A stretch of 64,000 nt of DNA from Corythoichthys intestinalis (Eukaryota), in contig NC_080406.1 in the NCBI RefSeq assembly GCF_030265065.1, forward strand, positions 15,785,094 to 15,849,093. Direction: 5' to 3'. This document shows positions 1 through 45,554 of this stretch, piece after piece. The notes under the pieces were generated by a model. The model saw only the letters and a program-made list of their open reading frames with translations. It ran no database searches and had not been told where the DNA came from. Every line of letters begins with the position of its first letter. Position 1 is the first letter of the stretch. The position numbers and the translations under genes were made by a program.

Positions 1-702
1 TCCCAGTCTCAGGTCTTGTGCAGATACCAACAGGTTTTCTTCCAGAATGCTCCTGTATTTGGCTGCATCCATCTTCCCGTCAATTTTAACCATCTTCCCT
101 GTCCCTGCTGAAGAAAAGCAGGCCCAAACCATGATGCTGCCACCACCATGTTTGACAGTGGGGATGGTGTGTTCAGGGTGATGAGCTGTGTTGCTTTTAC
201 GCCAAACATATCGTTTTGCATTGTGGCCAAAAAGTTCAATTTTGGTTTCATCTGACCAGAGCACCTTCTTCCACATGTTTGGTGTGTCTCCCAGGTGGCT
301 TGTGGCAAACTTTAAACGAGACTTTTTATGGATACCTTTCAGAAATGGCTTTCTTCTTGCCACTCTTCCATAAAGGCCAGATTTGTGCAGTGTACGACTG
401 ATTGTTGTCCTATGGACAGACTCTCCCACCTCAGCTGTAGATCTCTGCAGTTCATCCAGAGTGATCGTGGGCCTCTTGGCTGCATCTCTGATCAGTTTTC
501 TCCTTGTTTGAGAAGAAAGTTTGGAAGGACGGCCGGGTCTTGGTAGATTTGCAGTGGTCTGATCCTCCTTCCATTTCAATATGATGGCTTGCACAGTGCT
601 CCTTGAGATGTTTAAAGCTTGGGAAATCTTTTTGTATCCAAATCCGGCTTTAAACTTCTCCACAACAGTATCTCAGACCTGCCTGGTGTGTTCCTTGGTT
701 TT
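1..702 (-). pseudogene. Tc1-A transposase, N-terminal part, inactivated
   Basis: ATG at 702 on the minus strand. Codon 11 is TGA here (GTC TGA GAT) where copy 3 has GTC CGA GAT, so no long ORF is present in the transposase frame. Confidence 0.7.
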
Positions 703-1096
703 CATAATGCTCTCTGCACTTTAAACAGAACCCTGAGACTACCACAGAGCAGGTGCATTTATACGGAGACTTGATTACACACAGGTGGATTCTATTTATC
801 ATCATCGGTCATTTAGGACAACATTGGATCATTCAGAGATCCTCACTGAACTTCTGGAGTGAGTTTGCTGCACTGAAAGTAAAGGGGCCGAATAATATTG
901 CACGCCCCACTTTTCAGTTTTTTATCTGTTAAAAAAGTTTAAATTATCCAATAAATGTTCCACTTCACAATTGTGTCCCACTTGTTGTTGATTCTTGACA
1001 AAAAAAATTAAATTTCATATCTTTATGTTTGAAGCCTGAAATGTGGCGAAAGGTTGCAAGATTCAAGGGGGCCGAATACTTTTGCAAGGCACTGTA
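1..1096 (-). mobile_element. Tc1-like transposon, family A, copy 1 (cut by the window edge)
   Basis: Bases 1-700 match copy 3 at 44196 onward. The terminal repeat GGGGGCCGAATACTTTTGCAAGGCACTG + TA lies at 1063-1096. Confidence 0.85.
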
Positions 1097-1696
1097 CATA
1101 TTGCCATATTTTTTTTCTTATTGATATAACCTGTAAATGATTATTGCTTGCTATACTAGGTTGTAGTATAATGTTTAAGTGTTACAAAGAGTATAGAGGG
1201 TCGGGATGACAACTGCCTTGCTTCATGGCCGCATCATTGCGTAACTAGACCTTCCAGGACATCTTCAGCACCTGGCGTCTGGACTTTCGTCTAGACCTTC
1301 GAGGACAATTTTCCATTCGAGGACATCTTCCATGGCCGCAGCGTTGCATAACTGAAGTGTCTGGGTCATTCTGACCATTTTTTACCTGTGCCTTTGCTTA
1401 CATACGTGTATTTAGTTAGTTCCACCTATATGCTCACACATAGCCAACCAAAATCACATGGGTGTCTCCAGCTTGCTTTCCCCCTCCCTTCAGGGCGGCA
1501 CCGTTCTGTGTTAGGACAAACCCCTAATTAAAAGAGCAAAGAGGGTTTTTTCCTTAGATCAATTTTGGTGACTATACAGCGTAATCTAGCATTCCTCTGT
1601 CTAGTCCCTCTTTGTTCTCCTTGGCCAAGAAAACTGAGTGTCTTCTCTCCTTATTTATGGGTAATTTTACAAATGTCGACCTAAGGGTCTATTTTT

Positions 1697-2008
1697 GAAC
1701 TTGACACCACTCATCAGTGATTGGGCACACACCTGACTTAAATTGTTTGGTAAAAATTGGTTTCAATTGCTCTTTAAGTCTCCTTAGGCAGAGAGTTCAC
1801 TTAACTTTTTTCCACCCTTCTGTCACTGTTGGCATGCTATCCTCATTAAAATATGAAAACCTGTAAATGTTTTGGTGGTTTTAGTTAAAGCAGACACTGT
1901 ATTTTCATCTGTGTGATTTTCACAAAGATCAGATCACATTTAATGGTGATTTTATGCAGAAATGTCAGAAATTCCAAAAGGTTCAGATAATTTTTCTTAC
2001 CAGTGTAT
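1697..2008. mobile_element. Terminal fragment (IR/UTR) of Tc1-like family D
   Basis: About 300 bp match 59390-59699 (…CCAAAAGGTTCAGATA..TTTTTC.TACCAGTGTA terminus). Confidence 0.5.
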
Positions 2009-4142
2009 GTATCTCTTTCCAATGCTAAATCTGCATGAATACATTGAACAAAATTTTTTTGTTGTTGTTGTTGTTTTTTTAAATGTAAATAAGCTCCACC
2101 TATTCTTCGCAGATTTTTGATTATCGCGGGGGAAGGGTCCCCGTTTAATTCTTATTTTTGTGTTTCCAGGTTTGGTCAATGAATAAGCTGATAGCTTAAT
2201 ATGGAGTTGAGTCACATCATTCTTTATCTATATTTGAAGCACACGGGTCAAATATCGTGGTTATCTTGTACATTATTCTATAACCTGAGGCAATAATTTT
2301 AATGACCATTTTTTATTTTTAATTGATCATTATATTATCAGCGACTTGTTAATGAATGGCTTCAAATAAAGCAAAGCTATGTGAAAAACACTCAAACCTC
2401 CACTGTTCACTGTATATAATTAAGCGAAAAAGAGAGATAATAACCAGATTTTTCATTGATGCAAATTAGACCTTTTGGGATTTTTAAATTGAATATAAAC
2501 GGTATGGATTATGAATGAATGAAATCTCCCCCGTTAGGAAAGATTTCCCCACCCTAAAGTAGTACCAGACTTTTCTCATTCTAGTGACCTTGAAAAAAAC
2601 ATTGCAGATTTTATGTGCATCGTGAGGCGAAGCCAATCTTAGGTGGCACTCGACAATATTCCCTCACATAGCGGACGTGGCCCCGTGTCCATAAATCACT
2701 CCCATGACAGCTGCTTGAACTCGGAAAAAGCAATGAACTTAACTATGACTCACACGCTCCTATTTTTTACTCTGTTTAAATCAGTGGTGGCCAAAGTTGA
2801 ACCATTTTTTGCTCATGCACATACATAGGCTACACAGCATATAGTATGATAAATTTAAGGGAACACAGCACAAAACAGAGAGTTATTCTTGTGCTTGCCT
2901 GCATTGTAATTCATGTTCCGGTGTTTATGGTCTGAATGCGAAGACTGCTTCTGTTACTTTCCTTTTCTTAGCAGGGGCGAATTTAGTGAGATCCAGGGCC
3001 TACGGGCACTCTCCAAAAAAAAAAAAAAATGCTCCTCTTACAGACAGTCATTTGTTTGTTTTCCTATACCAGCCAATAGCCTGACCTGGTTGACATTGGA
3101 TTATTTTGAACCATTTTTGTTTAGAAAACAAATTGTGAAGATAATATTCTGGACTCAGCATTACATTTTCCTGCGTTTAGCCCTCCGTGGAAAAGGATCA
3201 CTGATTTTAGAGATTCATCAGTTTAAAATATAATCTTATCCCTATTTGCATTGGCCACGTTTATAGGACATGCTGCTAATAACCCTTTCAAAATCAGATT
3301 ATTGGCAGACTTAACCCAGTTGTGCTGAGCCATGTAAACACATTCAAAAACCCAAATATGCTCATATACAGGATTTCAAAAACCCGATTACGCCCCCTTT
3401 TCTAATATGAATATCTGGTCATGTAAATCTGCTGTCGGGATAGACGCTCTGTGCATGCTCCATTAGCAAGAAATTTAGGTCTCTTGAGTAGAAGAAGCAG
3501 GTGTTGCTGTCTAATACATGGCGAAAAACAGCAAAATGCTTCTGGAAAGAGAAGGAAACTCATGACTTCATTAGTGTAGTGAAAGATTCAAGTCATTAAA
3601 GGGATCCTCTGTTTTTAAGACAAGTAATTCCTAAAAGATAAATGTTAGTATAAGTTATAATAATTTGATATTAAAACCCCTCTTAATGTTTTTGTTTTAA
3701 TAAAGTTTGTAAAATTATTTTAAGTGATAGGTCGCCATTCTTGTTACGTCGCAGTGCGTGACGTCACTGGTCCGGTTCCAGCGTATCACTCGTTAGCTTT
3801 CCCAACATGTCGTGTTCTACTCTTCCTATTTGAACCAGATCTGAAAAGTGATGAGCAGGACAGCACTGTCGGTCGTTCACAAGATGAGTTTCAGGGAAAA
3901 ATGCGTGCAGCAAATACCTGATAAGACAAAATTTGGGCAAAACTGGTGATGCGAGAGAGTGCTGTTGGGAAGTCCGATTGGGAGCGAGAGTCTATGCTGT
4001 CCGGTTTTATTAGCAGATATTCAAGGTAAGCATATTGCGTTTTCAAACTTATCCCAATATAATTATGTAGATTGTTAGCATCCAGAGCTGCCGTGTGCTT
4101 ACAGTACAGGCCAAAGAGTACACCTTGACTAATGTCTTGTAC

Positions 4143-4795
4143 ATTGTAACGCGTGGTAGCTAGGATACGTGTATAAAAGTACTAAAAATGGGAGAAGCTT
4201 CCACTTATGCACATTTATTCACAAAAAATAATATTTCCACCTTGACCACTCTTCACTCGGGAGCTCAGCAGTACGCAAACACGGGTTCCCTGACGAACTC
4301 CCAACATTGTTGTAAGGTCCACGTCAGAGTCACTGTCGTCACTGTAGCGTGCCATAGTGCTTTACTTATTTAGTATGATTTAGAGAAAACTCCCACGAAG
4401 AATAGTCAACAAAAAAGATAGCAATAGTAATCCAAATCCGCGTTTTTTACTCACTCGAAGATCCAGGAATTAGACTGATACCATGGCAATGTTGCAGCCG
4501 CGATTAGGTCGTCGATTCCACAAAATAGACTGATCCGAAAAGCCGCTGTGGGACCGACGAATCAAAAAAATGGACAGATCTGAAACCAATATTGCAGACG
4601 CGGTGGGACCGTCGGATCCAGAAAATAGACGGATCCCTCACTTGACTGAGGATCCAGGAAAAATGTTCGGGCGCTAGTTGTAACGCGTGGTGGGTAGGAT
4701 ACGTGCATACAGGGACCAAAAAGGGGGAGGAGCACCCACTTATGCACATTTATTCACTAAAAATACTAATTCCACCTTGACCACTCCCCTTGTTT
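4143..4795. repeat. Pair of ~120-bp direct repeats (4143-4260 and 4680-4795) around short internal GATCC-rich repeats
   Basis: Near-identical block TGTAACGCGTGGT.GGTAGGATACGTG…CCACTTATGCACATTTATTCAC…TTCCACCTTGACCACTC occurs twice. Confidence 0.4.
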
Positions 4796-5777
4796 CCATT
4801 TGACTGGAAATTGCATCCAAAAGCAGCACATCGTGGCATTTTACTTCGCGAGTTTGGGCAGCAATAAGCAATTGTTGAACACCAAAGACACCAATGACGT
4901 CATCACTGCGAGCCCGCAAACCATGGCGCCAACTAACGGTCAAAATATGGACTAAATATTATAAAATATTGCTATTGATTTAACATTTTATGTGTTTATA
5001 ACAACATATTTTGGTACAAGAGAACAATTGTGGTTTATTAGAGCTTACATTTATTTAAGTTAGAGGATCACTTTAAAGGACCTGTGACATCACAAAAGAA
5101 ATCTTAAATATCATTACTTTTGGAATTAATATCATATTTTGAGATGATTCAACTATATACAACAATTTTGTAAAGCGCTGATGACGAGAAATGCATCTTT
5201 AGAATGCGTACGACAGGCTAAAAAAAATCTTAATAGCATGATTATGTGAATTACAATATTTTGAGATGATTCGACTACATACAACAATTTGACAAAGCGC
5301 AGATGACGAGAAATTAGTATTTTAATCCGCCGTCTAGCCAGGCCTACCATTAATAGGGCTCTAGCGTCCCCAATAGGTGGATGACGTCAGCGGGGGAATG
5401 GTTTCATCTGATTTAGTATGCAGCCCATTGAGGGGGGAATTATTCATAACGTGGAAAATGCGACGAAGAGAGCCGCAAAATCTCATTGTTTCAGTCTGTG
5501 TACTCCAATATTTTTAAAGATATTCAATTTTACAGAAGTATTTTCCCAATTGCTAAATAAATGGTAGGGTCATGACAAATAACAATCTTGTGCTAAATGG
5601 GATATGAAATAATAAAAATGCATTTATTCAGTACGACATGGCAAAATTACTCCATAATGGTCAAAACTGTCGACTTCACTTTTACTGTCGCATCTCCCGA
5701 AAGCTACATTATTCCACCGTAGTTAGTAAGGCTTTTGACATTTCCCAGCCCCCTGGCTTCAGAGAATGTAACAAAGG

Positions 5778-5800: not shown

Positions 5801-5804
5801 AAGA

Positions 5805-7436
5805 TACAGTGCCTTGCAAAAGTATTCGGCCCCCTTGAATCTTGCAACCTTTTGCCACATTTCAGGCTTCAAACATAAAGATATGAAATTTAATTTTTTT
5901 GTCAAGAATCAACAACAAGTGGGACACAATCGTGAAGTGGAACAACATTTATTGGATAATTTAAACTTTTTTAACAAATAAAAAACTGAAAAGTGGGGCG
6001 TGCAATATTATTCAGCCCCTTTACTTTCAGTGCAGCAAACTCACTCCAGAAGTTCAGTGAGGATCTCTGAATGATCCAGTGTTGTCCTAAATGACCGATG
6101 ACGATAAATAGAATCCACCATTGTGTAATCAAGTCTCCGTATAAATGCACCTTCTCTGTGATAGTCTCAGGGTTCTGTTTAAAGTGCAGAGAGCATTATG
6201 AAAACCAAGGAACACACCAGGCAGGTCCGAGATACTGTTGTGGAGAAGTTTAAAGCCGGATTTGGATACAAAAAGATTTCCCAAGCTTTAAACATCTCAA
6301 GGAGCACTGTGCAAGCCATCATATTGAAATGGAAGGAGCATCAGACCACTGCAAATCTACCAAGACCCGGCCGTCCTTCCAAACTTTCTTCTCAAACAAG
6401 GAGAAAACTGATCAGAGATGCAGCCAAGAGGCCCATGATCACTCTGGATGAACTGCAGAGATCTACAGCTGAGGTGGGAGAGTGTCCATAGGACAACAAT
6501 CAGTCGTACACTGCACAAATCTGGCCTTTATGGAAGAGTGGCAAGAAGAAAGCCATTTCTCAAAGATATCCATAAAAAGTCTCGTTTAAAGTTTGCCACA
6601 AGCCACCTGGGAGACACACCAAACATGTGGAAGAAGGTGCTCTGGTCAGATGAAACCAAAATTGAACTTTTTGGCCACAATGCAAAACGATATGTTTGGC
6701 GTAAAAGCAACACAGCTCATCACCCTGAACACACCATCCCCACTGTCAAACATGGTGGTGGCAGCATCATGGTTTGGGCCTGCTTTTCTTCAGCAGGGAC
6801 AGGGAAGATGATTAAAATTGACGGGAAGATGGATACAGCCAAATACAGGAACATTCTGGAAGAAAACCTGTTGGTATCTGCACAAGACCTGAGACTGGGA
6901 CGGAGATTTATCTTCCAACAGGACAATGACCCAAAACATAAAGCCAAATCTACAATGGAATGCTTCAAAAATAAACGTATCCAAGTGTTAGAATGGCCAA
7001 CTCAAAGTCCAGACCTGAATCCAATCAAGAATCTGTGGAAAGAGCTGAAGACTGCTGTTCACAAACACTCTCCATCCAACCTCACTGAGCTCGAGCTGTT
7101 TTGCAAGGAAGAATTGGCAAGAATGTCAGTCTCTCGATGTGCAAAACTGATAGAAACATACCCCAAGCGACTTGCAGCTGTAATTGGAGCAAAAGGTGGC
7201 GCTACAAAGTATTAACGCAAGGGGGCCGAATAATATTGCACGCCCCACTTTTCAGTTTTTTATTTGTTAAAAAAGTTTAAATTATCCAATAAATTTTGTT
7301 CCACTTCACGATTGTGTCCCACTTGTTGTTGATTCTTGACAAAAAATTAAATTTTTTTATCTTTATGTTTGAAGCCTGAAATGTGGTGAAAGGTTGCAAG
7401 GTTCAAGGGGGCCGAATACTTTTGCAAGGCACTGTA
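5805..7436 (+). mobile_element. Tc1-like transposon family A, copy 2 (full length, transposase frameshifted)
   Basis: TACAGTGCCTTGCAAAAGTATTCGGCCCCCTTGAA terminal repeats at both ends, TA flanks, 1632 bp. Confidence 0.9.
6198..7215 (+). pseudogene. Tc1-A transposase with a 2-bp deletion
   Basis: ORFs 6198-6491 and 6448-7215 together cover the 339-aa protein of copy 3. At about 6480 this copy reads GAGAGTGTCCATAGG where copy 3 has GAGAGTCTGTCCATAGG. Confidence 0.85.
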
Positions 7437-7539
7437 TACAGTATGTGAATATGAAATATTAAAAATGCATTTATTCCGTACGACAGGGCTAAATTACTGA
7501 ATCATGGTCAAAGCTGCCGACTTCTTAAACCTTCCGAAC

Positions 7540-25717: not shown

Positions 25718-27183
25718 CCATATTTTTCGGACTTTCAGTCACACTTGAGTATAGGTCGCACCAGCCATAAAATGCCCAACGAAGAGGAAAAAATCATATA
25801 TAAGTTGCACTGGAGTATAAGTCGCATTTTGGGGGAAATTTACTTGATAAAACCCAACACATAGAACAGATATGTGATCTTGAAAGGCAATTTAAAATGA
25901 AAATAGAATAGAGAACAACATGCTGAATAAATGCACAGTATGATAATGTTACATGATGCATGAACAACGAAATGCGAACGTGGCTGGTATGTTAACGTAA
26001 CATAGCTGTCACATAGCCCATTCACTCCCAGCCATTTTCACCGGTGCAACCCCCTTCGCTCCCGGCCATTTTACTAGATTTTGACTGACTTTTCAAGGCC
26101 CACAGAAAATTCGGTTCTATTGCTATATAAACATGGAACCCACCAAAAGAAAGATTAGACTCTTCTTTCAGGAAAAAAAAGTAAATTCATATCTTTTTCC
26201 ATTCTTTAGAAATCAGCATTAGAAAATAGCTTAGTTTGAGCAAATTTTCCAATTTCTGATGAAAAAAAAGAAAAATTGAGCTTTTTGTGCCATCATACAT
26301 TTCAAACATAATTTTGACTTTAACACAGCTATTTTTTGCATCCCAAGCATCTGAATAATGATTCCTTTTACAAAATAACATAAACAACAAGACAAATAGA
26401 GCTTTTGATAGCAAAGTAACAATTTATTTACACATAACTAACTGAGTGATGACGCTGTTGTGGTCGCGACAGCCAGGTAAACTTTTCCCTCATTGCCGCC
26501 TGTCTCATAAAGATGGACTTTTTAGAGTTTCTGCGGGGTCTGCTCGGCGAGCAGCACGGACTCAACGGCATTGTCCGCTGCACTGGTGGCTCCGGTCGTT
26601 CTGCTCGGTCGTCCAGTGCCTGGCACCCCGCGCGTCCTCTAGGTTGTTCTGCTCGGTCGTCCGCCGCTTGGCACCTGGACACCATTCGGTCGTCTTCCGC
26701 TGGCGCCCCGGCCGTGCGGCCTGGCATTGAATCGGGTTACGGGTCCTTCCAAATGCGCTTTTGCCCTCCAGTGGCCAGTTTTATTGCTTTAAAATGGATT
26801 TCCAGCTTTGTGCTTTGGAGCTAAATTGAATCAGAACCCAGAGATGTCTCTTGTTAAAAAAAAAAAAATGTAATGTGAAAATGTAAAAAGATGTATAAAT
26901 ACGTCTTTGGGACATTGAAACAATTCAAAATAGAATGTATTTATACGTATTTGGGAGCAAATGAGTTAAGAGCCATTCAGATAACTATAGCAAAAAGAAC
27001 ATGCTAACAAGTTTACCAAACCATCAGTGTCACTCCAAAACACCAAAATAACATGTGAAATGATATAATCATGTGTCAATACTTTCACACATAAGTCGCT
27101 CCAGAGTATAAGTCGCACCCCCAGTCAAACGATGAAAAAAACTGCGACTTATAGTCCAAAAAATACGGTAATTGTCCCACTTG
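25718..27183. mobile_element. TIR-bounded element related to the MITE at 39850, with repeat R3 inside
   Basis: GTACCATATTTTTCGGACTTTCAGTC…TATAAGTCGCA at the left end and TGCGACTTATAGTCCAAAAAATACGGTAA at the right. Confidence 0.4.
26020..26960. repeat. Dispersed repeat R3 (second copy at 54780-55740)
   Basis: About 90% identity over ~900 bp. It contains internal ~40-bp GC-rich direct repeats (GTTCTGCTCGGTCGTCC..GC.TGGCAC). Confidence 0.55.
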
Positions 27184-28074
27184 ATGAATATCAACATTAA
27201 CTGTACAGTACTGTACTGTAATTCCAGTCCATCACACAGTGGCAGAAACACTTTCACTATTTCAATGTAATTCTATCATTTTGTTATCATTTGATGCCCT
27301 GACTGCCTCTATAACTTTCCATTTTTCACTCCATGTTTTGTCCTATGAAATTTCAACTGTGTTACTTTGCAACTGTAATCTGCCCAGAGCCGTCAGACTC
27401 CTGAGAGCTGGTGCTTCCCTCTTATACACCAGGTTTCCTCTTTAACCACAAGTTACATTTCAGAATCGGCACACTGGCGAGTCCTGTAGATCCGCTCAAA
27501 GGCGGAAATGACATTGACATCATGCCCTACGACTGATTGAGGCATGCTAAATAGTCTTTGACTGGTTGACTAAACATTAATTCCTGTGGAGAATATTGCT
27601 GCACTCGAAAATCATTGCATTTAGTCCATTCACACTTTTAAAGTAAAATTGCACAATGGGAGGATGGGTTGGTGAACACAGTTGCTAGCTGGCTTTAACC
27701 ACAAAAGGATATGTTATCTACCCAACAAATTGCAATAGTTAAATTTGGTCTAGAAATATTTAGTGTCCCCGGTAAGTACTGGCATCCATCTCGTTATGTT
27801 TTAGCCTCCTAAGACACGTTTTCAGCTCATCATTGTGGCGTCATCGTCATGAAAAAAATTGTTCTTTGACTGAATATTTTCATTATCGTCATCGTTAATG
27901 AAAATAACACTGTTTGTCTGTTTCCTAAAAAATTCATGTTTGTGCTCTATTGTTGTGTAAAGATTTGGACTTAAATGAAAAAATCTGAATGAATATTTTT
28001 GGACATGAACTTTTTGGAAGGTGTGTGTCGCATTACAGCTGGTGAAAATGTAACACAACATTATAGAAAAAGAA

Positions 28075-28440
28075 CACAGTACCAACAGTCAGACATGGTG
28101 GTGGTAATGTAATATGACAGCCTAAGGATGCTTTGCTGCTTCAGGACCTGGTTGACTCACTGTGATTGACAGAACCATGACTTCTGCATTTTATCAGAAA
28201 TTACTGAAGGAAAAAGTTCAACCATCAGTCTGTGACCTGAAAAAGAAGCACATTAAGGTAACAAAACTCAACGTGTCAAAGTCTGAATGGCATTTAAAAA
28301 TAATTAAGGTTTTCAAATTGCCTTGTCAAAGTCTGGAGATGCATTGGAGTCAAATGCTGTACTTTAAAGGCTATTCATGCTTGAAAGCTGTCCAGTGTTG
28401 CTGAATTAAACAATTCTGAAAGTAAGCGTAAGCCAAAATA
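28075..28440 (+). mobile_element. Degenerate Tc1-like transposase fragment
   Basis: The translation reads TVRHGGGNV…AFYQKLLKEKVQPSVCDLKKK…SKSEWHLK…SLEMHWSQML, which is a decayed match to the Tc1 catalytic region. Confidence 0.5.
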
Positions 28441-28749
28441 TCTAACAGAGATATCAAGACTCATCACCTACCAACTTAAAGGGTATGAAAACACTAAGGG
28501 GCTGTGAGATATCAATAGAACCGTTATGTAGCAAGATAACAAATATTAATAAAGTTAACAAAAAAATAAATCGCATTCATGAGCAATTATCGAAAATAGA
28601 TCGAAAATTACGAACATTTCCGAAAGTATTCCGGAAACAGCCGAATGGGGCGGAGACGTCATAACAAGGAAACAAAAGGTCGCGGCAGCTACCATCGTTG
28701 TTTATCGACGAGAGAGTTGCGTTCATGTTTTATCAAAAAAACGCTAAAA

Positions 28750-29101
28750 TGGTTCAAACCTGTCATGCTATGTGGTTTACAAATAGCTATTTGTCGCAAT
28801 GTAGTACCCATGAGTTCCCGAGCGTGAGAAAAAGAGCTGGACTACGCAGACAATGAGTAAATTTTTCAGACCCAGCCTCGGGCGCGGTTTTGTGTGGTGC
28901 GCATTTTACACCTGAAAGCTATACGAACTATGGACAAATGAAATCAGGTTTTGCTAAGAAATTGCTGCTGAAAGCAGATGCGGTGCCCACCTATACGCGC
29001 AGCCACCTAAATGTCCCGAGATAACAAGAAAGAGGACGATGACTGGCTCTGATGAGACCACCCCACCACCCCAGGCAAAGCAAAGGAGGGAAATGGCCAG
29101 A
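28750..29101 (+). pseudogene. THAP zinc-finger domain remnant in two exons
   Basis: Exon 1 reads MLCGLQIAICRNVVPMSSR and ends at …CCGAGC|GTGAGA. The putative intron is 47 bp and ends TTTTTCAG. Exon 2 reads PSLGRGFVWCAFY(T) PESYTNYGQMKSGFAKKLLLKADAVPTY, with a 1-bp frameshift and then a stop. It ends at AG|GTGAGT near 29101. Confidence 0.45.
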
Positions 29102-29823
29102 GTGAGTACTCTTTTATAATAAAAAACAAATCACGCATTGGATATAGGACTGGACATATGTATAAATTATCGCTCGTAAAATATATAGAACAAATCCTCT
29201 AATCCCATTCATATTTGTGTCGGTTGGCAGAGCGAAAACCGATGATAGCACATTAAATGATAATTATTCTATACATTACTTTATTTTGCGGTCACGGTGT
29301 ATCAGCTTCACAAAAAGAAATGCAAAACAAACCATTTGGTGTTTCTGTTGCCGCCGGTGTTTCGGCAGTGTGATTGCTCCCCTCAATGATCCTTTCATTA
29401 GGCTGCATTGGCTTTCGTTTGGGCTCAAATTGATAACCCAAAACACCAAAGAAAGGTTCATAACTGTCCTCGTCACCATTAGAAGAATGTTCGTTACGTC
29501 GGATTCGTCGCTGCAACTAGAAACAAATTTGTCCGCCATTATCGCCGCCATTCAGTACTAAGCACTGAGCCGGTTGTTTCCTTATAGTGACGTCATGCAC
29601 ACAATATGCTAGATTTCCGGCATGTCGGGGGCAGGTCGTTTTACCTTGACAATCGACCTAATTTCTATCATTTTCTTGGTGTTGCGATGTGTGTGTAATT
29701 ACACGAAGTGGCATGATATGAATTCAAAAGGCATGCGTTGATGGATAAATGATGGAATATTAGCATTTCCCCAGGTGTTGTCATACCCTTTAAGTGGCTA
29801 TGAGGACACTAATAATAATAATA

Positions 29824-32513
29824 AGAAAAATAGGTAACACTTTATAATAATAACTATCCGTTTAACCATTAGTAAACTGTTGATAAATGATTTATTGTTG
29901 ATTTGTGAAGTTACCAAAATAGGTAACACTTTATAATAACTATCCGTTTTACCATTAGTGAACTGTTGATAAATGATTTATTGTTGATTTGCGAAGCATT
30001 TGTTAACAGTTTGTTAAGCATTTACAGGGTGTTCTTAACCTGAAACACAGTTTGTGTAGAAACGTTTCAAGTTTTTGTGTGTAACGTTTGGCATTTCTAT
30101 CTTTTCAGGTTAAGAAATGCCGTTCACTTCAAAAGAAAAGGCATTTTGATAAGGCATTTTGCAGGCAGCGCTCATGTTGCACATTTATGAAAATCTGCCA
30201 TAGAACCAACAAATAATTGTACTTTTCTTTGTATATTTAACCAATAAAACTTATGACCTTCAACATAAAGTGTATATAGTTTTATTAAGATCCATCAACT
30301 TATGGAGTTACAGGAGTGCCAAAATTAAAAATAAATAAATAAATGAATAAATAAATAAATGAATGAATAAATAAATAAATAAATATAAAGAGAAATAAAT
30401 ATATAAATGAATGAATAGGTAAATAAATGAACGAATAAATAAATATAAAGAGAAATAAATATATAATTAAATAAAAATATAACGGTATACTTTGTCATTG
30501 ACATTTACTTTTGATCATTAACAACCACAAACGGAAAAAACAATGACAATTTTATTTTTTGCCTTTGCCTTTTCTGTTTGGCTTTTACATTGTCATTGTC
30601 ATTTGTCAATCGCCTTTCCTCTTTGGGAATGTAAATGGCAAATGCGCAGAGAAACGGTCTGTCAATCAAATGACGTTGGTAGGGGCTTTCCAACCAGGAA
30701 TAGTAGTCGATAACTGATTATTTCTAGTTTAACTTTCCGCACATGCGCCGTACGGCTAACCAAGCGCGACCACGGCTGTTTTGTGTGACTGCACTACGCC
30801 ACTTCCTCCAATCGGTCTTTGTCAGTCACGTGCCCAAACTAGCGGACGCGCCCCCATGCGCCATTTTGAGTGTACCACGGATGTAAACAAACCAGAACAG
30901 AAGTAGCTCCAACGCCACATTACTGCCTCCAACTTCATCGCTGGATATAAAAAACTCCCTCTTTTACAGTATCAGCGCTTAAATTTTAAAAACTATAAAT
31001 CTCTCGAAGCTCACGGACATTTAACAAATGGCTCGGTGCAGGATCTCCGCATTTCGACCGCAGGACTGCGACAACACAGTCGTCACTCTCGTTGCTCCTC
31101 TCAGAAACATGATCCAGCTCTTACTTGAACATTGTTGAACTTGAATTGTACCTTGATTATCATCTTAAACATCGCATGACTAAAACAGGTGAAGGAACTG
31201 TCAAAATTACATGCAAATTCATGTATATTGCACAATATATTGTTTCAGTGTTGACATTGCCATGCAAAGATGTGCAATTCTCTCCATGCAGGACTTATCA
31301 TGTGAAGTGGGACAAATTTACTTGAACACGTTATTCTACAACTAGTAATATTTATTTTACTTCATATGCACGTTTTATATTTCCTTGTATTGCCATTTTC
31401 TGTTTACCATTGTGCGGCTGCTGTTTTGAATGAGAATTTTAGTAAAAATTATATATCTAAAAAAGTAAAACTGTCAAACTTCTCGTTTTGTTTGCAAACA
31501 TCATACTTCCTATTCAGTGTTTATCTCCCAAAAAATGTTTGAATGTAATTGGTAAAAAAAAATTTTTTTTAAAAAGTACTTTCCATGATCAAAACTAACA
31601 CTAGTTCTTTATGTATGTTCGTCATGATTATAAACACGAAGATTCAGACATAGAAAATAATTATTCTTTGAATGGTCTGGCATGTGTGTCGAATAATATA
31701 TTTTATAATATATTTTTTTACCGGTCTAGAAAAATGTATTTCTATCGTTTAATCTATCACGTAAAAAGTCTATCCATATCCATATCTATCCAGTCTATCC
31801 TATCCATAAAAACCGCACGTGCAACTCGATAACCGACATCACTTTCCTTCAGGTAAACTAGGAATAATCCGTTGTCGACTACTATTCCTGGTTGGAAAGC
31901 CCCGCCTAACGTCATTTGATTGACAGACCGTTTCTCTGCGCATTTGCCATTTACATTCCCGAAGAGGAAAGGCGATCGACAAATGACAATGACAATGTAA
32001 AAGCCAAACAGAAAAGGCAAAGGCAAAAAATACAATTGTCATTGTTTTTTCCATTTGTGGTGTTCAATGACAGAAAGTAAAAGTCAATGAAAAATGTTGT
32101 CATTGTTTTTTCCGTTTGTGGTTGTTAATGACCAAAAGTTAATGTCAATGACAAAGTATAACGTTATATTTTTATTTATTTATTTATTTATATATTTATT
32201 TCCCTTTATATTTATTTATTCGTTCATTTATTTACCTATTCATTTATTTATTTATATATTTATTTCTCTTTATATTTATTTATTTATTCATTCATTTATC
32301 GATTTATTCATTTATTTATTTGTGACTCCATACAACTAGCATGGGCATTTAGAATGGGGTCAATCATATTGGAATACCCTGTAAATGCTTAACAAACTGT
32401 TAACAAATACTTCACAAATCAACAATAAATCATTTATCAACAGTTTACTAATGATCTATTAACTAGTAAAGCGGATAGTTATTATAAAGTGTTACCGAAA
32501 AATAACAATTATA
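29824..32513. mobile_element. Foldback-like element with ~700-900-bp inverted arms
   Basis: 29824-30720 is the reverse complement of 31850-32513. The match includes a tandemly duplicated ~85-bp subterminal unit and an (AAATAAATG)n-like tract. About 1.1 kb of central sequence is unique. Confidence 0.55.
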
Positions 32514-33293: not shown

Positions 33294-36200
33294 CTAACTA
33301 TAAGCTTTGTCGAATAGGAACGTTTTTAATCTAATCTTAAATGTGCAAACTGTCTCGGCTTCTTTAATACTAGCTGGAAGCTGATTCCATAAAACAGGGG
33401 CTTGGTGGCTAAAGGCTCTAGCTCCGACAGTACTTTTATGAACCCTGGGAACTACCAGTAGACCTGCATTCTGAGATCGGAGTGTTCTGTTGGGGCGGTA
33501 TGGAACCAGAGCATCGGTGAGATAAGATGGCCCCAACCCATTAATGGTCTTAAATGTAAGAAGGAGTATTTTAAATTTAATTCTAAACTCGACTGGAAGC
33601 CAGTGAAGTGCCTGGAGCACAGGGGTGATGTGCTCTCTTCTATTGGTTCCTGTTAAAAGTCTTGCTGCTGCGTTTTGGACTAGCTGAAGACCTTTTAGAG
33701 AGCTTTTAGGACAAGCTGCAAGTAGGGAGTTACAGTAATCCAATCTCGATGTAACGAACGCGTGAATTAATTTTTCTGCATCGCTTTTAGATAAAATGTT
33801 TCTAATTTTGGCGATGTTGCGCAGGTGAAAGAAAGCCGTTCTACAGGTTTGTTTAATGTGTGCTTTAAACGATAAGTCAGGGTCAAATAAAATTCCTAGG
33901 TTTTTAACTGTGGCGCTGGAGGCTACACTTACATTGTCCAGAGTGACTATCTGGGCAGATAAAGAGTCTCTAACACTTTTCGAGCCTATTATAAGGACTT
34001 CTGTCTTTTCAGGGTTAAGTAGAAGATAGTTAGTGCTCATCCAGGTATTTATATCTCGGACGCAGGCGCTTAGTTTTTCTACTTGCCTGACCTGCTCAGG
34101 TTTAATTGATAAATACAGTTGTGTGTCGTCAGCGTAACAATGAAAGTTAATGCTATGTTTTCTGATGATGTTACCTAGAGGAAGCATATACAGCGTAAAC
34201 AAGATGGGCCCGAGGACAGATCCTTGCGGCACACCATAACTAACTCTAGAGTACGATGATGATTGCTGGTTTACATTGACAAACTGGTACCTATTAGATA
34301 AATATGATTTAAACCAGCAGAGGGCTGCTCCTCTAATGCCTATGTCACATTCTAATCTCTGCAATAAGATATTATGGTCGATTGTGTCAAAGGCTGCGCT
34401 CAGGTCCAGCAGAACCAGGATCGAGACTAATCCAACGTCAGCGGCAAGTAACAAGTCATTAGTTACTTTAACTAATGCGGTTTCAGTGCTATGATGAGCT
34501 CGAAAGCCAGACTGGAACTGTTCAAATAAACTATTGTCCTGTAGGTGCTGACAGAGCTGTTTAATTACCACTCTTTCAAGGACTTTGGAGAGAAATGGTA
34601 AGTTAGAAATAGGTCTATAATTGGCCAGAATATCAGGATCAAGAGTAGGTTTTTTCAAGAGCGGTTTAATAACTGCATATTTAAAGGACTGCGGCACGTA
34701 GCCAGTAACTAATGAGGTATTTATTATATTTAAGATAGTGTCAAGGAGGCACGTTGATGGTTTGGAGGACATTATAATTGAAGTTACATCAATTTGGTCT
34801 ACAGTGGTAAAGTTATTTAATATTTTAGAGGGGTTTATAGGAGATTCCGAATTCTTTGTCTGCACTTTATCAGACCTAATAATTGGAAGTGATTCATTTA
34901 TTTTATTTCTAATAGTTGCGATTTTATTGTTAAAAAATTTTAGGAAGTCATCACAGCTAAGGGTGGTTGGGATATAAGGTTCTATTGAGGTGTGACTGTT
35001 TGTCAGCCTTGCTACAGTGCTGAACAGAAACCTAGGATTATTTTTGTTTTCCTCTATTAAGGATGAGTAATATCTGGTTTTAGCCGTGCGCAAGGCCTGC
35101 TTATATGTCACTAAGCTGTGTTTCCAAGCAGAGAGGGTGTGCTCTGTGTTGGAACGGCGCCAAAGTCTTTCTAATTTACGTGTCGATTGTTTAAGAGAGC
35201 GTGTTTCAGCATTATACCAGGGAGATGCTCGTCTCGGCTTGACAAACTTTAATTTGGAGGGAGCGACGACATCTAGGGTGGTACGAAACGTAAACAGAAC
35301 ACGATCAACAAACTCGTCATTAACAGCAAGGCCGGACATCACTCCTTCATAATTAGATGACATGGAGGCAAATATAGGCTGAATTATCTGTTTATACTCT
35401 GAAACAGAGTGATCACCTAATGTCCTTTTCATCTGAGTTCTAATCACTGGTGGTGGATTATCTTGAAGCACAAACCGAAAGGTAATTAGAAAATGATCAG
35501 ACAGTACAGGGTTGTGGGGATGGACACTAAGATCACTAATCTCAGTACCGTAGGTTAAAATCAAGTCCAGGGTGTGCTTGTGACTATGAGTTGGTTTATT
35601 TACATTTTGAATGAAGCCAGTCCCATCTAGTAGGTCATTAAAGGCCTTACCAAGGGAGTCACCTTCATCGTCAACATGTATATTAAAATCCCCTACAATT
35701 ATAATTCTATCCCAGCTTAGCAAAATACTAGATAAAAAGTCAGAGAAATCTAACAAAAACTGTGAGTAGGGACCAGGGGGACGGTAAACCACTATGAACA
35801 GAACTGGTTTTTGGTTCTTCCAGTTAGCGTCTATAATTGATAGTGCTAGACTTTCAAAGGAGTTATAAATGTAATTAGCTTTACTTTTTGGGCTCATACC
35901 TAAACAAGAGTGTGATATTACTGCCACCCCCCCTCCACGGCCCGTGCTTCTAGCTGTGTGAAAATTCACGTGACTTGGGGGTGTGGATTCATTAAGTCTA
36001 ACAAAGTCATCCTGCTGAAGCCAAGTTTCAGTCAGGGCCAAAATATGAATATTGTAATCCCCAATTAAGTCATTAACTAACAGAGATTTGGGCGAGATTG
36101 ACCTGATGTTTAATAATCCGCATCTTATATATTTATTAAGAGCTAATTTATTTTCACTGCTATTAGGGGCTATATGTATTAAATTCTTTGGTCTCGTTCC

Positions 36201-36362
36201 TATAGTACTCGGTTTTCCCCTGTTCACTATACGAGGCACGGACACGGTCTCTATCTTCTGTCCTGAATTTTGGATTTGTGACAGCTCGGAAAGAGGCGAG
36301 TGGTCACTACTAACAGTGTTATGTTTTACACTACAACACTGCGCCCGGGCCCCCACTCTCAA
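33294..36362 (-). CDS. L2 ORF2: apurinic endonuclease plus reverse transcriptase (1022 aa)
   Basis: APE motifs [24 protein letters not shown] motifs [48 protein letters not shown]. The C-terminal block reads [13 protein letters not shown]…LHWLPV. Confidence 0.9.
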
Positions 36363-36365
36363 GTG

Positions 36366-37244
36366 TCACTTTGGGAGACTTAGTTTGGCGGCCAAATTTC
36401 GAGTTAAGAGAGCAGCACCGTCCCAAGTCGGATGAATGCCGTCTCGGCGCATGAGCCCGGGCTTGCCCCAAAACGCGTGCCAGTTATCAACAAAGACTAT
36501 ATCGTTTTCTGGGCACCATCTAGACAACCAGCGGTTAAATGATGAGAATCTAGAGTACATCTCATCATTGACCAAATTAGGCAGAGGACCAGAGAAAACT
36601 ACGGTGTCCGCCATCGACTTAGCAAGTTCACACACCGAGGCTACGTTTAATTTAAGCACCTCAGACTGTCTCCGCCGGGCGTCGTTACCGCCTGCGTGAA
36701 TCACGATACGGCGGAACCTCTTCCTACTCTGCTTTAAGAGTCTGAGGTTTCCTTCGATGTCACCGACTCTGGCCCCTGGGTAGCACCTGACAGACACCGC
36801 CGGGTGCTTCACGTCTCTAACTATGGAGCTTCCAATTACGAGAGTGTCTGGTTCAGCCGGTGTGTCGCTGAGGGGGGCAAACCTATTGCTGACGTGAAGC
36901 TGCTGGTGCACTAAGGTTGTGCGTTTACCACTGCGCTTCCCCCGTACAGTCACAAATCCCTCCTTAATTTCCCCCGGCTGCACGGGGCTCGCTGGGGGGC
37001 TAACTGCGCTAGCAATCCTACTACTGCAAGCACGACCTGCCACTACCTGGCTATAGCTAGGACTAGCTTTCGTCTCTAGAGTGCAGAGCCGTGCTTCTAG
37101 CTCAGAAACCCTGGTCTCCAACCCTGAGACTAAGCTACACTTCCTACAGCTACTACTGTCCTCGACGAAGGAGCCAGGGTGCTCGCTATACATACAGCAC
37201 ACTGAGCAGAAAAGACGGGAGGACGAAGGCAGAGGGCTAGCCAT
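36366..37244 (-). CDS. L2 ORF1: Cys-rich N-terminus plus SGNH-type esterase domain (292 aa)
   Basis: Motifs LVIGSSIVRDV (nucleophile block), IHAGGNDA (GxND block) and RDGIHPTWDG (DxxH block). It ends in a TGA that is in the same frame as ORF2. Confidence 0.85.
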   Translation of the reverse strand: MASPLPSSSRLFCSVCCMYSEHPGSFVEDSSSCRKCSLVSGLETRVSELEARLCTLETKASPSYSQVVAGRACSSRIASAVSPPASPVQPGEIKEGFVTVRGKRSGKRTTLVHQQLHVSNRFAPLSDTPAEPDTLVIGSSIVRDVKHPAVSVRCYPGARVGDIEGNLRLLKQSRKRFRRIVIHAGGNDARRRQSEVLKLNVASVCELAKSMADTVVFSGPLPNLVNDEMYSRFSSFNRWLSRWCPENDIVFVDNWHAFWGKPGLMRRDGIHPTWDGAALLTRNLAAKLSLPK

Positions 37245-41673: not shown

Positions 41674-43606
41674 AGTAGTGAGCACACAAGCACACTTTGT
41701 GCTTGTGGGATCTCTATTTATTATGTGACTTGTTCAACACTGCTTTTGGACTATAAAACAACTGCAAGAGACAAAAACTGCCACCTAAAAAAGTGCAAGA
41801 GACATGTCCCTGGCATTCTACGCTGTAAATTATGTCTATGCGGCTGGCTCAAACTCGTCAATGAAAAGATTCATTCATATTGGATCCGTAAGGGGAGTTT
41901 GACTTTTTGGGGGCACAAAATGTTGATGACCCCGAAACGCTGTGTCAGCAATAAAATTAACTTACAAGAATATTTATAATTATAAGTTGAAAATGAGCGA
42001 TTTTTTGTTTCACATCATTTTTGAGGGGAATTCTAAACTAGGCTGCTTAGGACAGCGATAATTTTCGCCAAGGTCGCCATCCATTGAATATGGTACGCCC
42101 GCATGTGGTGGCTCTGTTGTATAATTAGTGTATTTAATGGGGCAAATTGAAACTCAGCTCTCTGGCGTTTCATGGTCCACATTTTCAATCATTGGTTCTT
42201 GCTCAGTAGATATTGTCACTTTTGAAAGCTTAGGTTTGAAAAAATTACGTATATCCATCTTGCCTCTTAGGTCCTCAGGTGGTTTTGGCTAACCAGAGTA
42301 AATGACCGTCTCAGGTGCTAGTCACATGATATGTTGAAAAATAATTTAGACCCATTATAAAAATGTTTTTAAAAAAGTCAATTCAATTCATTTTTGTTTT
42401 TTTGTTTTATTGCTTTTTACAACTTTTATAGACAATATTTTACCGGAAAACTCTTAATTTTAAAATCATACATAGGAAAGTTATTTACATGCAATGGCAA
42501 TTTTCTGCCACCAGGGGGGCGCCCCCCCCCCTTAAACTCCAGGTATGGTTGGATTCTTTCCACATTTTTTCTAAAAATCACCAAACTTGACAAGCTCACC
42601 AAATTCAACATAAAAAACACAATTTGGCAGCCTAAGAAAAACGTACTAACTCTATAACGCATGTACTCATTGGATACTTGACTAAACTCCATTAAGAAGT
42701 TCATTTGCAAACTGAATAATACTCACTTTTGATTAATAGTGTCAGAGAGCTATGGATTGAATGTTAAATCCTCAAGTACTAAAGTGGGTCTATCGATCGG
42801 CGAGTTAGCGACCTTGACTTTTCTGATCATGCCCTGATTTTTGCAGTCAATTGATGTCCTTGTTGAATCAGAGTGTCTTTGACTGTGTGTCCTGGCTAAA
42901 TACCACAATTCCGCCATTTAGTGACTGTCTGGATGCTGTTCCCAACACTGGTGGTGGAAATTTTCCACTTTGTTAGAATAATAAATATTAAATATTAAGC
43001 ATGTTCATAATTTACATTCAACACTGAAATTGGCTGCTGCAACCCAGTCACTCGGTTCGGTTTGAAAGGCAAATGTGAATAAATGCCTGTATGTTTGATA
43101 ATGGCTCTGGAATAGAGAGAGTCACTCGGTTCAGTTTGAAAGGCAAATGTGAATAAATGCCTGTATGTTTGATAATGGCTGTGGAATAGAGAGCGTATTG
43201 ACTTGACCTTTGGTACCAAGTCCCTGAGGAAAATCATCAGATAACAATGTGTGTTTCGTGAGACATACGTATGATCTAACAGGCGTATGACCGTATACTA
43301 GTTATGTCGAAGAGAAAAAAAATGTTGAATTGGACTTCATATGATCGGCGTATAGTGCCTATGCCCATGATTGCAAAGGTGACGATAAAAAAAAAGACTT
43401 AAACAAGATTAGACCAGAGGTACGTAGAGTAGCCAAAGGTTTTACTCAACAAAGAGCGTTCCTTCTAAATAATATTAGACAAGTAAAAGTAGTCATCCAA
43501 AAATTTACTCAAGTACAAGTAAAATAGTATTAGTTGAAACGAATACTCAAGTAATGCGTAACATTGTGAGTAGCTGCTAACAATGTCTGATTTTAATGGT
43601 ATAATA

Positions 43607-43608
<2 letters not shown>

Positions 43609-43659
<51 letters not shown>
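43609..43659. repeat. (TA)n microsatellite, target of the Tc1-A copy 3 insertion
   Basis: (TA)n runs directly into TACAGTG. A matching (TA)n tract lies at 45290-45327 on the other side. Confidence 0.9.
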
Positions 43660-43662
<3 letters not shown>

Positions 43663-45286
43663 TGCCTTGCAAAAGTATTCGGCCCCCTTGAACCTTGCAA
43701 CCTTTCGCCACATTTCAGGCTTCAAACATAAAGATATAAAATTTTAATTTTTTGTCAAGAATCAACAACAAGTGGGACACAATCGTGAAGTGGAACAAAA
43801 TTTATTGGATAATTTAAACTTTTTTAACAAATAAAAAACTGAAAAGTGGGGCGTGCAATATTATTCGGCCCCCTTGCGTTAATACTTTGTAGCGCCACCT
43901 TTTGCTCCAATTACAGCTGCAAGTCGCTTGGGGTATGTTTCTATCAGTTTTGCACATCGAGAGACTGACATTCTTGCCCATTCTTCCTTGCAAAACAGCT
44001 CGAGCTCAGTGAGTTTGGATGGAGAGTGTTTGTGAACAGCAGTCTTCAGCTCTTTCCACAGATTCTCGATTGGATTCAGGTCTGGACTTTGACTTGGCCA
44101 TTCTAACACCTGGATACGTTTATTTTTGAACCATTCCATTGTAGATTTGGCTTTATGTTTTGGATCATTGTCCTGTTGGAAGATAAATCTCCATCCCAGT
44201 CTCAGGTCTTGTGCAGATACCAACAGGTTTTCTTCCAGAATGTTCCTGTATTTGGCTGCATCCATCTTCCCTTCAATTTTAACCATCTTCCCTGTCCCTG
44301 CTGAAGAAAAGCAGGCCCAAACCATGATGCCGCCACCACCATGTTTGACAGTGGGGATGGTGTGTTCAGGGTGATGAGCTGTGTTGCTTTTACGCCAAAC
44401 ATATCGTTTTGCATTGTGGCCAAAAAGTTCAATTTTGGTTTCATCTGACCAGAGCACCTCCTTCCACATGTTTGGTGTGTCTCCCAGGTGGCTTGTGGCA
44501 AACTTTAAACGAGACTTTTTATGGATATCTTTGAGAAATGGCTTTCTTCTTGCCACTCTTCCATAAAGGCCAGATTTGTGCAGTGTACGACTGATTGTTG
44601 TCCTATGGACAGACTCTCCCACCTCTGCTGTAGATCTCTGCAGTTCATCCAGAGTGATCATGGGCCTCTTGGCTGCATCTCTGATCAGTTTTCTCCTTGT
44701 TTGAGAAGAAAGTTTGGAAGGACGGCCGGGTCTTGGTAGATTTGCAGTGGTCTGATGCTCCTTCCATTTCAATATGATGGCTTGCACAGTGCTCCTTGAG
44801 ATGTTTAAAGCTTGGGAAATCTTTTTGTATCCAAATCCGGCTTTAAACTTCTCCACAACAGTATCTCGGACCTGCCTGGTGTGTTCCTTGGTTTTCATAA
44901 TGCTCTCTGCACTTTAAACAGAACCCTGAGACTATCACAGAGCAGGTGCATTTATACGGAGACTTGATTACACACAGTTGGATTCTATTTATCATTATCG
45001 GTCATTTAGGACAACATTGGATCATTCAGAGATCCTCACTGAACTTCTGGAGTGAGTTTGCTGCACTGAAAGTAAAGGGGCCGAATAATATTGCACACCC
45101 CACTTTTCAGTTTTTTATTTGTTAAAAAAGTTTAAATTATCCAATAAATGTTGTTCCACTTCACGATTGTATCCCACTTGTTGTTGATTCTTGACAAAAA
45201 AATTAAATTTTATATCTTCATGTTTGAAGCCTGAAATGTGGCGAAAGGTTGCAAGATTCAAGGGGGCTGAATACTTTTGCAAGGCA

Positions 45287-45291
<5 letters not shown>
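43658..45291 (-). mobile_element. Tc1-like transposon family A, copy 3: structurally intact, candidate autonomous element
   Basis: Both terminal repeats are intact, TA flanks are present, and the transposase ORF is uninterrupted. Confidence 0.9.
43879..44898 (-). CDS. Tc1/mariner DD34E transposase, 339 aa, intact
   Basis: MKTKEHTRQVRDTVVEKFKAGFGYKKISQALNISRSTVQAII… forms the paired-like HTH region. The catalytic triad is in place: [21 protein letters not shown] and [16 protein letters not shown]. The protein ends AAVIGAKGGATKY. There are no internal stops. Confidence 0.9.
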   Translation of the reverse strand: MKTKEHTRQVRDTVVEKFKAGFGYKKISQALNISRSTVQAIILKWKEHQTTANLPRPGRPSKLSSQTRRKLIRDAAKRPMITLDELQRSTAEVGESVHRTTISRTLHKSGLYGRVARRKPFLKDIHKKSRLKFATSHLGDTPNMWKEVLWSDETKIELFGHNAKRYVWRKSNTAHHPEHTIPTVKHGGGGIMVWACFSSAGTGKMVKIEGKMDAAKYRNILEENLLVSAQDLRLGWRFIFQQDNDPKHKAKSTMEWFKNKRIQVLEWPSQSPDLNPIENLWKELKTAVHKHSPSKLTELELFCKEEWARMSVSRCAKLIETYPKRLAAVIGAKGGATKY

Positions 45292-45331
<40 letters not shown>

Positions 45332-45554
45332 CATACTCACGGTACACCATGCTAGTAACGGGTTGGACCCTGTTTTTCCTTCAGAACTGCCTCAATTCTT
45401 CGTGGCATAGATTCAACAAGGTGCTGGAAGCATTCCTCAGAGAGTTTGGTCCATATTGACATGATGGCATCACACAGTTGGTGCAGATTTGTCGGCTGCA
45501 CGTCCATGATGCGAATCTCCCGTTCCACCACATCCCAAAGATGCTCTATTGGAT

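Follow-up and report, generated by a model that had tools for sequence, protein, structure and literature searches.

A decayed THAP exon in Corythoichthys intestinalis related to the first exons of zinc-finger proteins and of a Kolobok transposase

We analyzed a 64-kb stretch of the Corythoichthys intestinalis genome (hereafter the window) and found, at positions 28749–29101, what is probably an orphaned THAP first exon copy that no longer functions and has no working gene attached to it (our probability for this reading is about 0.8). The ancestral exon would have comprised a start codon, a THAP zinc-coordinating DNA-binding domain, a basic linker, and a 5' splice site. In the same species, at least two annotated C2H2 zinc-finger proteins begin with an intact paralogue of it, and its homology with exon 1 of a DNA transposase of the Kolobok superfamily extends to an identical splice donor. 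The window copy appears to have lost everything beyond approximately 450 nt of its former intron, and it may have arisen either as a partial duplicate of the 5' end of a THAP zinc-finger gene or as the leftover of the transposon that donated the exon. We infer that the pseudo-exon is not expressed.

The coding remnant can be read in a single frame on the plus strand from an ATG at 28749–28751 to an AVPT box at 28980–28991, giving MVQTCHAMWFTNSYLSQCSTHEFPSVRKRAGLRRQ*VNFSDPASGAVLCGAHFTPESYTNYGQMKSGFAKKLLLKADAVPT for 28749–28991 by Pfam, tblastn, and the codon table; the exon itself ends at 29101. The full reading from this ATG, obtained by three-frame translation, is MVQTCHAMWFTNSYLSQCSTHEFPSVRKRAGLRRQ*VNFSDPASGAVLCGAHFTPESYTNYGQMKSGFAKKLLLKADAVPTYTRSHLNVPR*. 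With the internal stop masked, the translation of 28749–29021 matched the Pfam THAP profile (PF05485) at 26.6 bits (E 1.1e-5) over profile positions 17–86 only, above the curated gathering cut-off of 23.9 bits, and the score rose to 33.2 bits after the Trp was restored and the frameshift repaired. To judge from its sequence, the remnant at 28749–29101 is a decayed THAP-domain coding sequence. An earlier interpretation, made from the letters of the DNA without database searches (the sequence-only reading), had placed a THAP coding remnant at 28750–29101 and named a THAP profile search as its check; the profile match bears out the THAP-like coding, with the corrections that the ATG lies one base earlier and that the peptide had been threaded wrongly.

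The threading error centers on a 47-bp GT...CAG intron that the sequence-only reading had removed. Translated in the domain frame, this stretch gives SVRKRAGLRRQ*VNFS, the aligned counterpart of NARKRPGLRRQWVKF...NFA in intact relatives, and encodes the conserved R..W part of the THAP domain. The peptide spliced as originally proposed gave no Pfam THAP match at E≤1, and we therefore reject the intron, an artefact that arose because three different frames were threaded. The string KLLLKADAVPTY is present in the sequence as stated, and the TPESY...AVPTY part of the earlier peptide is in the true frame; the remainder belongs to two other frames, and the reported "C-x6-C" and "VWCAFY" are out-of-frame readings of what are in truth C5...F10 and VLCGAHF. 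Pfam searches of all six frames across approximately 27.8–30.0 kb (plus frames over 26.9–30.3 kb) returned the THAP domain and no further domain, and the minus-strand open reading frames (ORFs) around the exon had no Pfam match. A word-indexed protein search with the decayed peptide found no match, and a protein-pattern scan of metagenomes found no relative of the exon.

We called lesions by alignment and codon table against three intact relatives, P0062, P0001, and P0010, which are described below. Within 28764–28778 (plus strand), two cysteines that all three relatives keep (CCAxWC) have been lost: CAT at codon 6 specifies His, and TTT at codon 10 specifies Phe. The latter codon (28776–28778) is the position of the second zinc ligand of the C2CH motif, for which we applied the pattern C-X2-4-C-X35-53-C-X2-H; the ligand set of the window copy is incomplete, with C5, C49, and H52 kept and Cys10 replaced by Phe. 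THAP domains are further defined by invariant P, W, and F residues and a C-terminal AVPT(IF) box (PMC6004289). The remnant retains P24, F53, and AVPT, and in place of the invariant Trp (Trp36; RRQW in relatives) it has an in-frame TGA at 28854–28856, one base from TGG. An in-frame deletion of eight codons (24 bp) lies after 28859 (28857–28862, plus strand), between codons 37 and 38, at the site of KFVxxKxA in relatives. A net −1 frameshift lies directly after AVPT (28992–28996, plus strand), where the tblastn match changes frame between 28991 and 29003: relatives read AVPTIHA(Q)PPK, and the window copy reads AVPT-Y, then AQPPK in the next frame. A further five codons are gone near the end of the linker.

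Between them, the in-frame stop, the net −1 frameshift, and the 8-codon deletion leave the remnant without an uninterrupted frame. Given the stop in place of Trp, the lost zinc ligand, the frameshift, and the two deletions, this copy makes no THAP protein. Judged by alignment, the lesion pattern is of the pseudogene type and is neither a sequencing slip nor an unusual gene structure. The early stop and 1-bp frameshift noticed by the sequence-only reading are both real, and its description of the remnant as "decayed" is apt in view of the stop, the frameshift, the lost zinc ligand, and the deletions; for the same reasons its other term, "domesticated", finds no support in this copy.

The linker part of the exon continues in the shifted frame at 28994–29101 (plus strand; tblastn and alignment) and reads YAQPPKCPEITRKRTMTGSDETTPPPQAKQRREMAR, with the 5-codon deletion before its end; residues 93–126 of P0062 match it by tblastn at 82% identity. 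Directly after ...REMAR stands a GTGAGT splice-donor consensus (29102–29107, plus strand), a putative donor. The Kolobok transposase gene on the contig L001 has the same exon end, ...KLAVAR followed by GTGAGT, and in P0062 and P0001 a homologous ...[EL]MAR/LAR is followed by sequence common to the zinc-finger paralogues.

The closest relatives of the remnant are THAP zinc-finger proteins. We searched 1.84 billion representatives exhaustively with the 55 residues that follow the stop, and the best match was P0001, a protein of 530 aa (E 6e-16, 78% identity) that corresponds to XP_057701391.1, "gastrula zinc finger protein XlCGF57.1-like", of C. intestinalis. A search with P0001 led to P0062, "zinc finger protein 391-like isoform X1", of the same species. 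As the window is itself C. intestinalis genome, P0062 and P0001 are paralogues of the remnant. Residues 1–89 and 93–126 of P0062 matched the window by tblastn at a joint E of 1e-43, far beyond chance, and identity over residues 1–89 was 70.8% for P0062 and 69.7% for P0001. Once the stop and the frameshift were mended in the translation, identity of the window peptide with P0062 was 73.6% across 125 aa (E 1.7e-60), or 79% when counted over aligned columns; with P0001 it was 65.9% (E 6.5e-52; range 66–71%), and with P0010 50% (E 1.9e-25).

Both zinc-finger proteins begin with a full-length Pfam THAP domain (46.6 bits in P0062 and 47.5 bits in P0001), which is followed by an acidic linker and a C2H2 array. 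The window copy has a homologous THAP first exon with the same end, sharing with them the linker EI(T/S)RKRTMTG(S/T)DETTPPPQAKQRR and the terminal ...MAR. Unlike the window copy, they possess all zinc ligands, the Trp, an open frame, the acidic linker, and 6–9 C2H2 fingers, whereas the window copy is broken and its downstream exons are absent from the 64 kb. The only parts of the two proteins that tblastn found in the window were residues 1–126 of P0062 and residues 1–127 of P0001, and seven members of the zinc-finger family gave nothing better than E ~0.1 outside 28749–29104. No acidic-linker or C2H2 exon lies within 28 kb upstream or 35 kb downstream of the exon. In the P0062 and P0001 gene models, which are predicted and could be prediction chimeras, the DVTVEDLHPEKH exon is the presumed partner joined to the THAP exon.

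Another C. intestinalis zinc-finger protein, P0097, has a different THAP N-terminus, of the MGKKCWVVGC type (Pfam THAP, precomputed), which is unrelated to the MVQ(T/N)CCAMWC-type N-terminus of P0062 and P0001. C2H2 arrays in this species are accordingly preceded by at least two unrelated THAP N-termini, a pattern that suggests recurrent fusion of THAP domains and zinc fingers in pipefish.

Outside pipefish, the trail leads to a Kolobok transposase. P0010 is encoded on L001, a 19-kb ENA metagenome contig on which positions 1–5400 hold a multi-exon Kolobok transposase gene (THAP exon at 445–918, catalytic exons at approximately 3070–5300). The exons downstream of the THAP exon read GDGRSDSPGHSAKY, ITDRH, FDGWH, H..H..C.H, and STLEAFHS, and BLASTP was used to compare them with the catalytic core of Repbase Kolobok-1_XT as given in the supplementary alignment of PMC9587614. 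The alignment extends over 233 columns with 31% identity (E 2e-32) and takes in the DDE triad, the DxxH motif, and the H..C.H zinc finger. By homology, the P0010 gene is a Kolobok-superfamily transposase. Because these exons match Kolobok-1_XT, the nearest relative of the remnant outside pipefish is exon 1 of a Kolobok transposase and not a P element. Kolobok transposases usually carry a THAP domain at their N-terminus (PMC6004289), and the THAP domain of the window is related to that of L001 by the 50% identity given above and by tblastx (E 7.6e-21), the two first exons ending alike in ...AR followed by GTGAGT. A Kolobok system joins THAP to DDE, C/DxxH, and H2CH, whereas the window copy has neither the catalytic core nor demonstrable TTAA/RR..YY termini; tblastx of the whole window against L001 recovered the THAP exon only and found no Kolobok catalytic core. 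L001 also carries, at 6902–7010, a 109-nt palindromic element that is bounded by TTAA and MITE-like.

Among solved structures, the closest by sequence is human THAP1 (PDB 2KO0, 2JTG; E 1.1e-3). The two share the layout MVQ.C.A...N.Y...H.FP...W...C..HFTP.S...LLK..AVPT, although at approximately 30% identity only, and the remnant is a pseudogene. THAP1, the best-studied cellular THAP protein, has a coiled-coil region C-terminal to its THAP domain; unlike THAP1, the remnant has a basic linker and then at once a splice donor. THAP1 was the sole THAP chain in a PDB search at E≤10, which returned no P-element transposase or THAP9 chain.

The sequence-only reading had called the remnant "P-element-like" and had suggested looking for a P-element transposase body in neighboring sequence. 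None was found by Pfam or by ORF scan: ten long ORFs across the window were Tc1, LINE, or without a match. Nor did we find P-element ends (31-bp terminal inverted repeats with 8-bp target-site duplications), the repeats near the exon being Tc1-linked and none having 8-bp direct flanks. What P-element transposase and THAP9 have in common with the window copy is the THAP domain class only. With no P-element domain nearby, no P-element or THAP9 match in the PDB, and zinc-finger proteins and Kolobok as nearest relatives, the label does not hold.

We considered whether a gene with a short intron might nonetheless reside here, either a THAP gene that is live or was domesticated recently or one of the P-element/THAP9 type. 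Its start codon, the good donor at 29102, and GC-box and CRE motifs upstream would fit such a gene. This reading is scarcely credible, however, since the supposed intron is domain coding whose removal abolishes the Pfam match, the frame has the stop at the invariant Trp, the loss of Cys10, the frameshift, and both deletions, no P-element transposase domains lie nearby, THAP1 is the only THAP chain among the PDB matches, and the promoter-like motifs sit in a Tc1-linked repeat arm.

This arm belongs to the remains of Tc1 elements on either side of the exon. A decayed Tc1-family transposase ORF occupies 28007–28509 (plus strand), matching Tc1 copies of the window by tblastn (E 1e-9 to 1e-12, up to 28362) and ending in ...QLKGYENTKGL*. 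The C-terminal KGY..TK.* motif lies near the predicted end of the Tc1 ORF (compare NKGYITKY* in copy D and the family motif KG(Y/G).TKY*), and the last codons of the ORF form the left arm of a 26-nt inverted repeat (28469–28494, 29775–29800) that, together with a 21-nt one (28655–28675, 29574–29594), flanks the exon. Both repeats are parts of a longer, diverged inverted repeat. Its left arm (28469–28694, plus strand) consists of the Tc1 coding end and a presumed Tc1 3' inverted repeat; its right arm (29556–29800, minus strand) is a Tc1 3' end truncated beyond approximately 29805. Read on the minus strand, the right arm gives PLKGYDNTWG and is therefore a second Tc1 3' end, in convergent orientation; the two ends would belong to one Tc1 subfamily. 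The similarity between 28570–28675 and 29574–29688 reached a score attained by 0 of 1000 shuffles. Conservation of the arms is mosaic, with 21–26 nt at 88–95%, about 75 nt without detectable similarity, and some 110 nt at 60%. CCGGAAA, TGACGTCA, and AAGGAAACA all fall in the outer block, which is the better conserved, and the last of them occurs in the 64 kb at these two arm sites only.

The other Tc1 copies of the window have inverted repeats of 224–276 nt that begin at the stop codon. The two arms showed no similarity to the 3' ends of those copies, a search for a Tc1 left inverted repeat at 26.9–27.7 kb gave nothing significant, and BLASTP of the last 67 residues of the putative ORF against the Tc1 C-terminus gave no match, so that the arms are read as Tc1 from their position and from the KGY..TK.* motif. 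In the simplest reading, two Tc1 3' ends in convergent orientation would enclose approximately 860 nt of non-Tc1 DNA in which the exon lies. The GGGGCGG (28647–28653) and GACGTCA (28655–28661) motifs, which the sequence-only reading had placed correctly at about 100 bp upstream of the ATG (they lie approximately 90–100 nt from it), fall within the left arm. A GC box and a CRE inside a Tc1-linked repeat arm are for that reason not promoter evidence for the exon.

The symmetrical geometry led us to consider that the exon might have a mirror-image, palindromic duplicate on the minus strand, but no similarity at the sequence level bears this out. On that strand, two overlapping ORFs joined by one frameshift lie at 29292–29551 (MADKFVSSCSDESDV..SSNGDEDSYEPFFGVLGYQFEPKRKP...), without a Pfam match. 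Their starts lie 5–18 nt within the right arm's outer end, at a place that mirrors that of the THAP ATG on the other side. With their acidic, Ser-rich N-terminus and YxFEP motif, they may resemble the TE-associated P2RX7_C-type proteins of fish and invertebrates. Directly to the right of the Tc1 arm, 29827–29996 is a tandem duplication with a unit of 84–89 nt (93% identity), and a third copy of this unit lies 2.5 kb off on the opposite strand (32406–32496, 81–82% identity).

Kolobok elements are known for duplicating TTAA, for termini of the 5'-RR type, and for a THAP domain at the N-terminus (PMC6004289, PMC9587614). Since TTAA and RR termini typify these elements, we examined whether the exon could be the 5' end of an internally deleted, non-autonomous Kolobok element of approximately 1.3 kb that kept only the promoter and the THAP first exon. 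Such an element would be delimited by TTAA duplications and by AG-initial terminal inverted repeats, AGGGTATGA(A/C)AACAC, at 28480 and 29789. The outer repeat pair does show TTAA and then AGGG on both sides, the window has two occurrences, and no more, of the 19-nt pattern TTAAAGGGTATGAMAACAC, inverted around the exon, against 0.07 expected from shuffles, and the exon is homologous to Kolobok exon 1. Yet the left arm is formed by the final codons of a Tc1 ORF, its ...QLKGYENTKGL* being colinear from 28007 and lying at about the predicted ORF end, and on this ground we reject the Kolobok reading of the TTAA/AGGG repeat. The repeat, moreover, runs 7 nt beyond TTAA with five of the seven positions matching. 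The sole candidate pair of termini (28476–28494, 29775–29793) is in this way embedded in Tc1 coding on the left and in a repeat that continues past TTAA. The Tc1 reading is not resumed 3' of the right-hand TTAA, and the window holds no Kolobok catalytic core. Neither flank has significant similarity to L001, the observed score being reached by 768 of 1000 shuffles for the upstream part and by 92 of 1000 for the intron. We regard an element of this kind as improbable. A scan of metagenomes for the 19-mer returned 22 matches with unrelated flanks, about the number expected by chance on a rough estimate. A likeness between the window's upstream region and L001 (TTAAAG..AAACAC, TGACGTCA at about −100, and AAGGAAACA) was not significant as an alignment.

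The orphan-exon reading leaves two possible sources, and we weighed whether the copy is a fossil of the Kolobok-type donor transposon itself, its ends erased by later Tc1 insertions, instead of a duplicate from a zinc-finger gene. The setting is congenial to this idea: the surrounding DNA is TE-dense, no zinc-finger exon lies within 28 kb upstream or 35 kb downstream, and the homology to Kolobok exon 1 includes the exon end. However, the remnant is much closer to the zinc-finger-linked copies (74–79%) than to L001 (50%), the sole Kolobok copy compared, and its short linker matches P0062 and P0001, and not L001, in length and sequence. Kolobok termini and a transposase body were likewise not found in the window. 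A donor fossil is for these reasons rather unlikely, though far from negligible.

The window as a whole is dense in transposons, among them several copies of Tc1/Sleeping-Beauty-like elements and a LINE whose ORF1 encodes an esterase. The LINE, at 33294–37244 on the minus strand, is apparently intact, encoding a GDSL-esterase ORF1 of 292 aa and an ORF2 of 1022 aa with endonuclease and reverse transcriptase. Its ORF1 (36369–37244, minus strand) matches XP_057682991.1 and other entries exactly, from several C. intestinalis loci, a match that assigns the window to this genome. It is identical to proteins on nine C. intestinalis records, which suggests that the family was recently active. Two Tc1/Sleeping-Beauty-like elements, at 43605–45344 and 5804–7437, have inverted repeats of 276 nt and 224 nt, respectively, with 94% complementarity; the former encodes an uninterrupted transposase of 339 aa (HTH_SB and DDE_3), and a partial copy at 1–705 shows 96.6% protein identity. 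A long (AATA/AATG)n microsatellite-like array lies at 30298–30509, and a related low-complexity stretch at approximately 32094–32339 contains an ORF that reads "FIYLFIY" repeats. At 26428–26830 there is a GC-rich island in AT-rich DNA; both of its strands carry overlapping ORFs whose translations, about 100 aa in length, are rich in Pro, Arg, and Ala.

The locus itself is of little weight, being a dead exon and an ordinary genomic fossil, and gene annotation should not count 28749–29101 as a THAP gene or as a P-element relic. The pseudo-exon is of value as a pointer. Because two or more zinc-finger proteins begin with an intact version of the exon and a Kolobok transposase has its homologue as exon 1, the capture of a transposase first exon by zinc-finger genes of syngnathid fishes becomes a concrete, testable hypothesis. 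We propose tentatively, at somewhat less than even odds, that pipefish C2H2 genes may have captured a promoter-proximal Kolobok THAP first exon by exon shuffling, and the different THAP N-terminus of P0097 hints that fusion may have occurred more than once. If so, these genes would constitute a family of host-transposase fusions, as understood by Cosby et al. (bioRxiv 10.1101/2020.05.07.082677), that is specific to this lineage, and the pseudo-exon in the window would be a fossil either of the donor element or of an extinct fusion gene.
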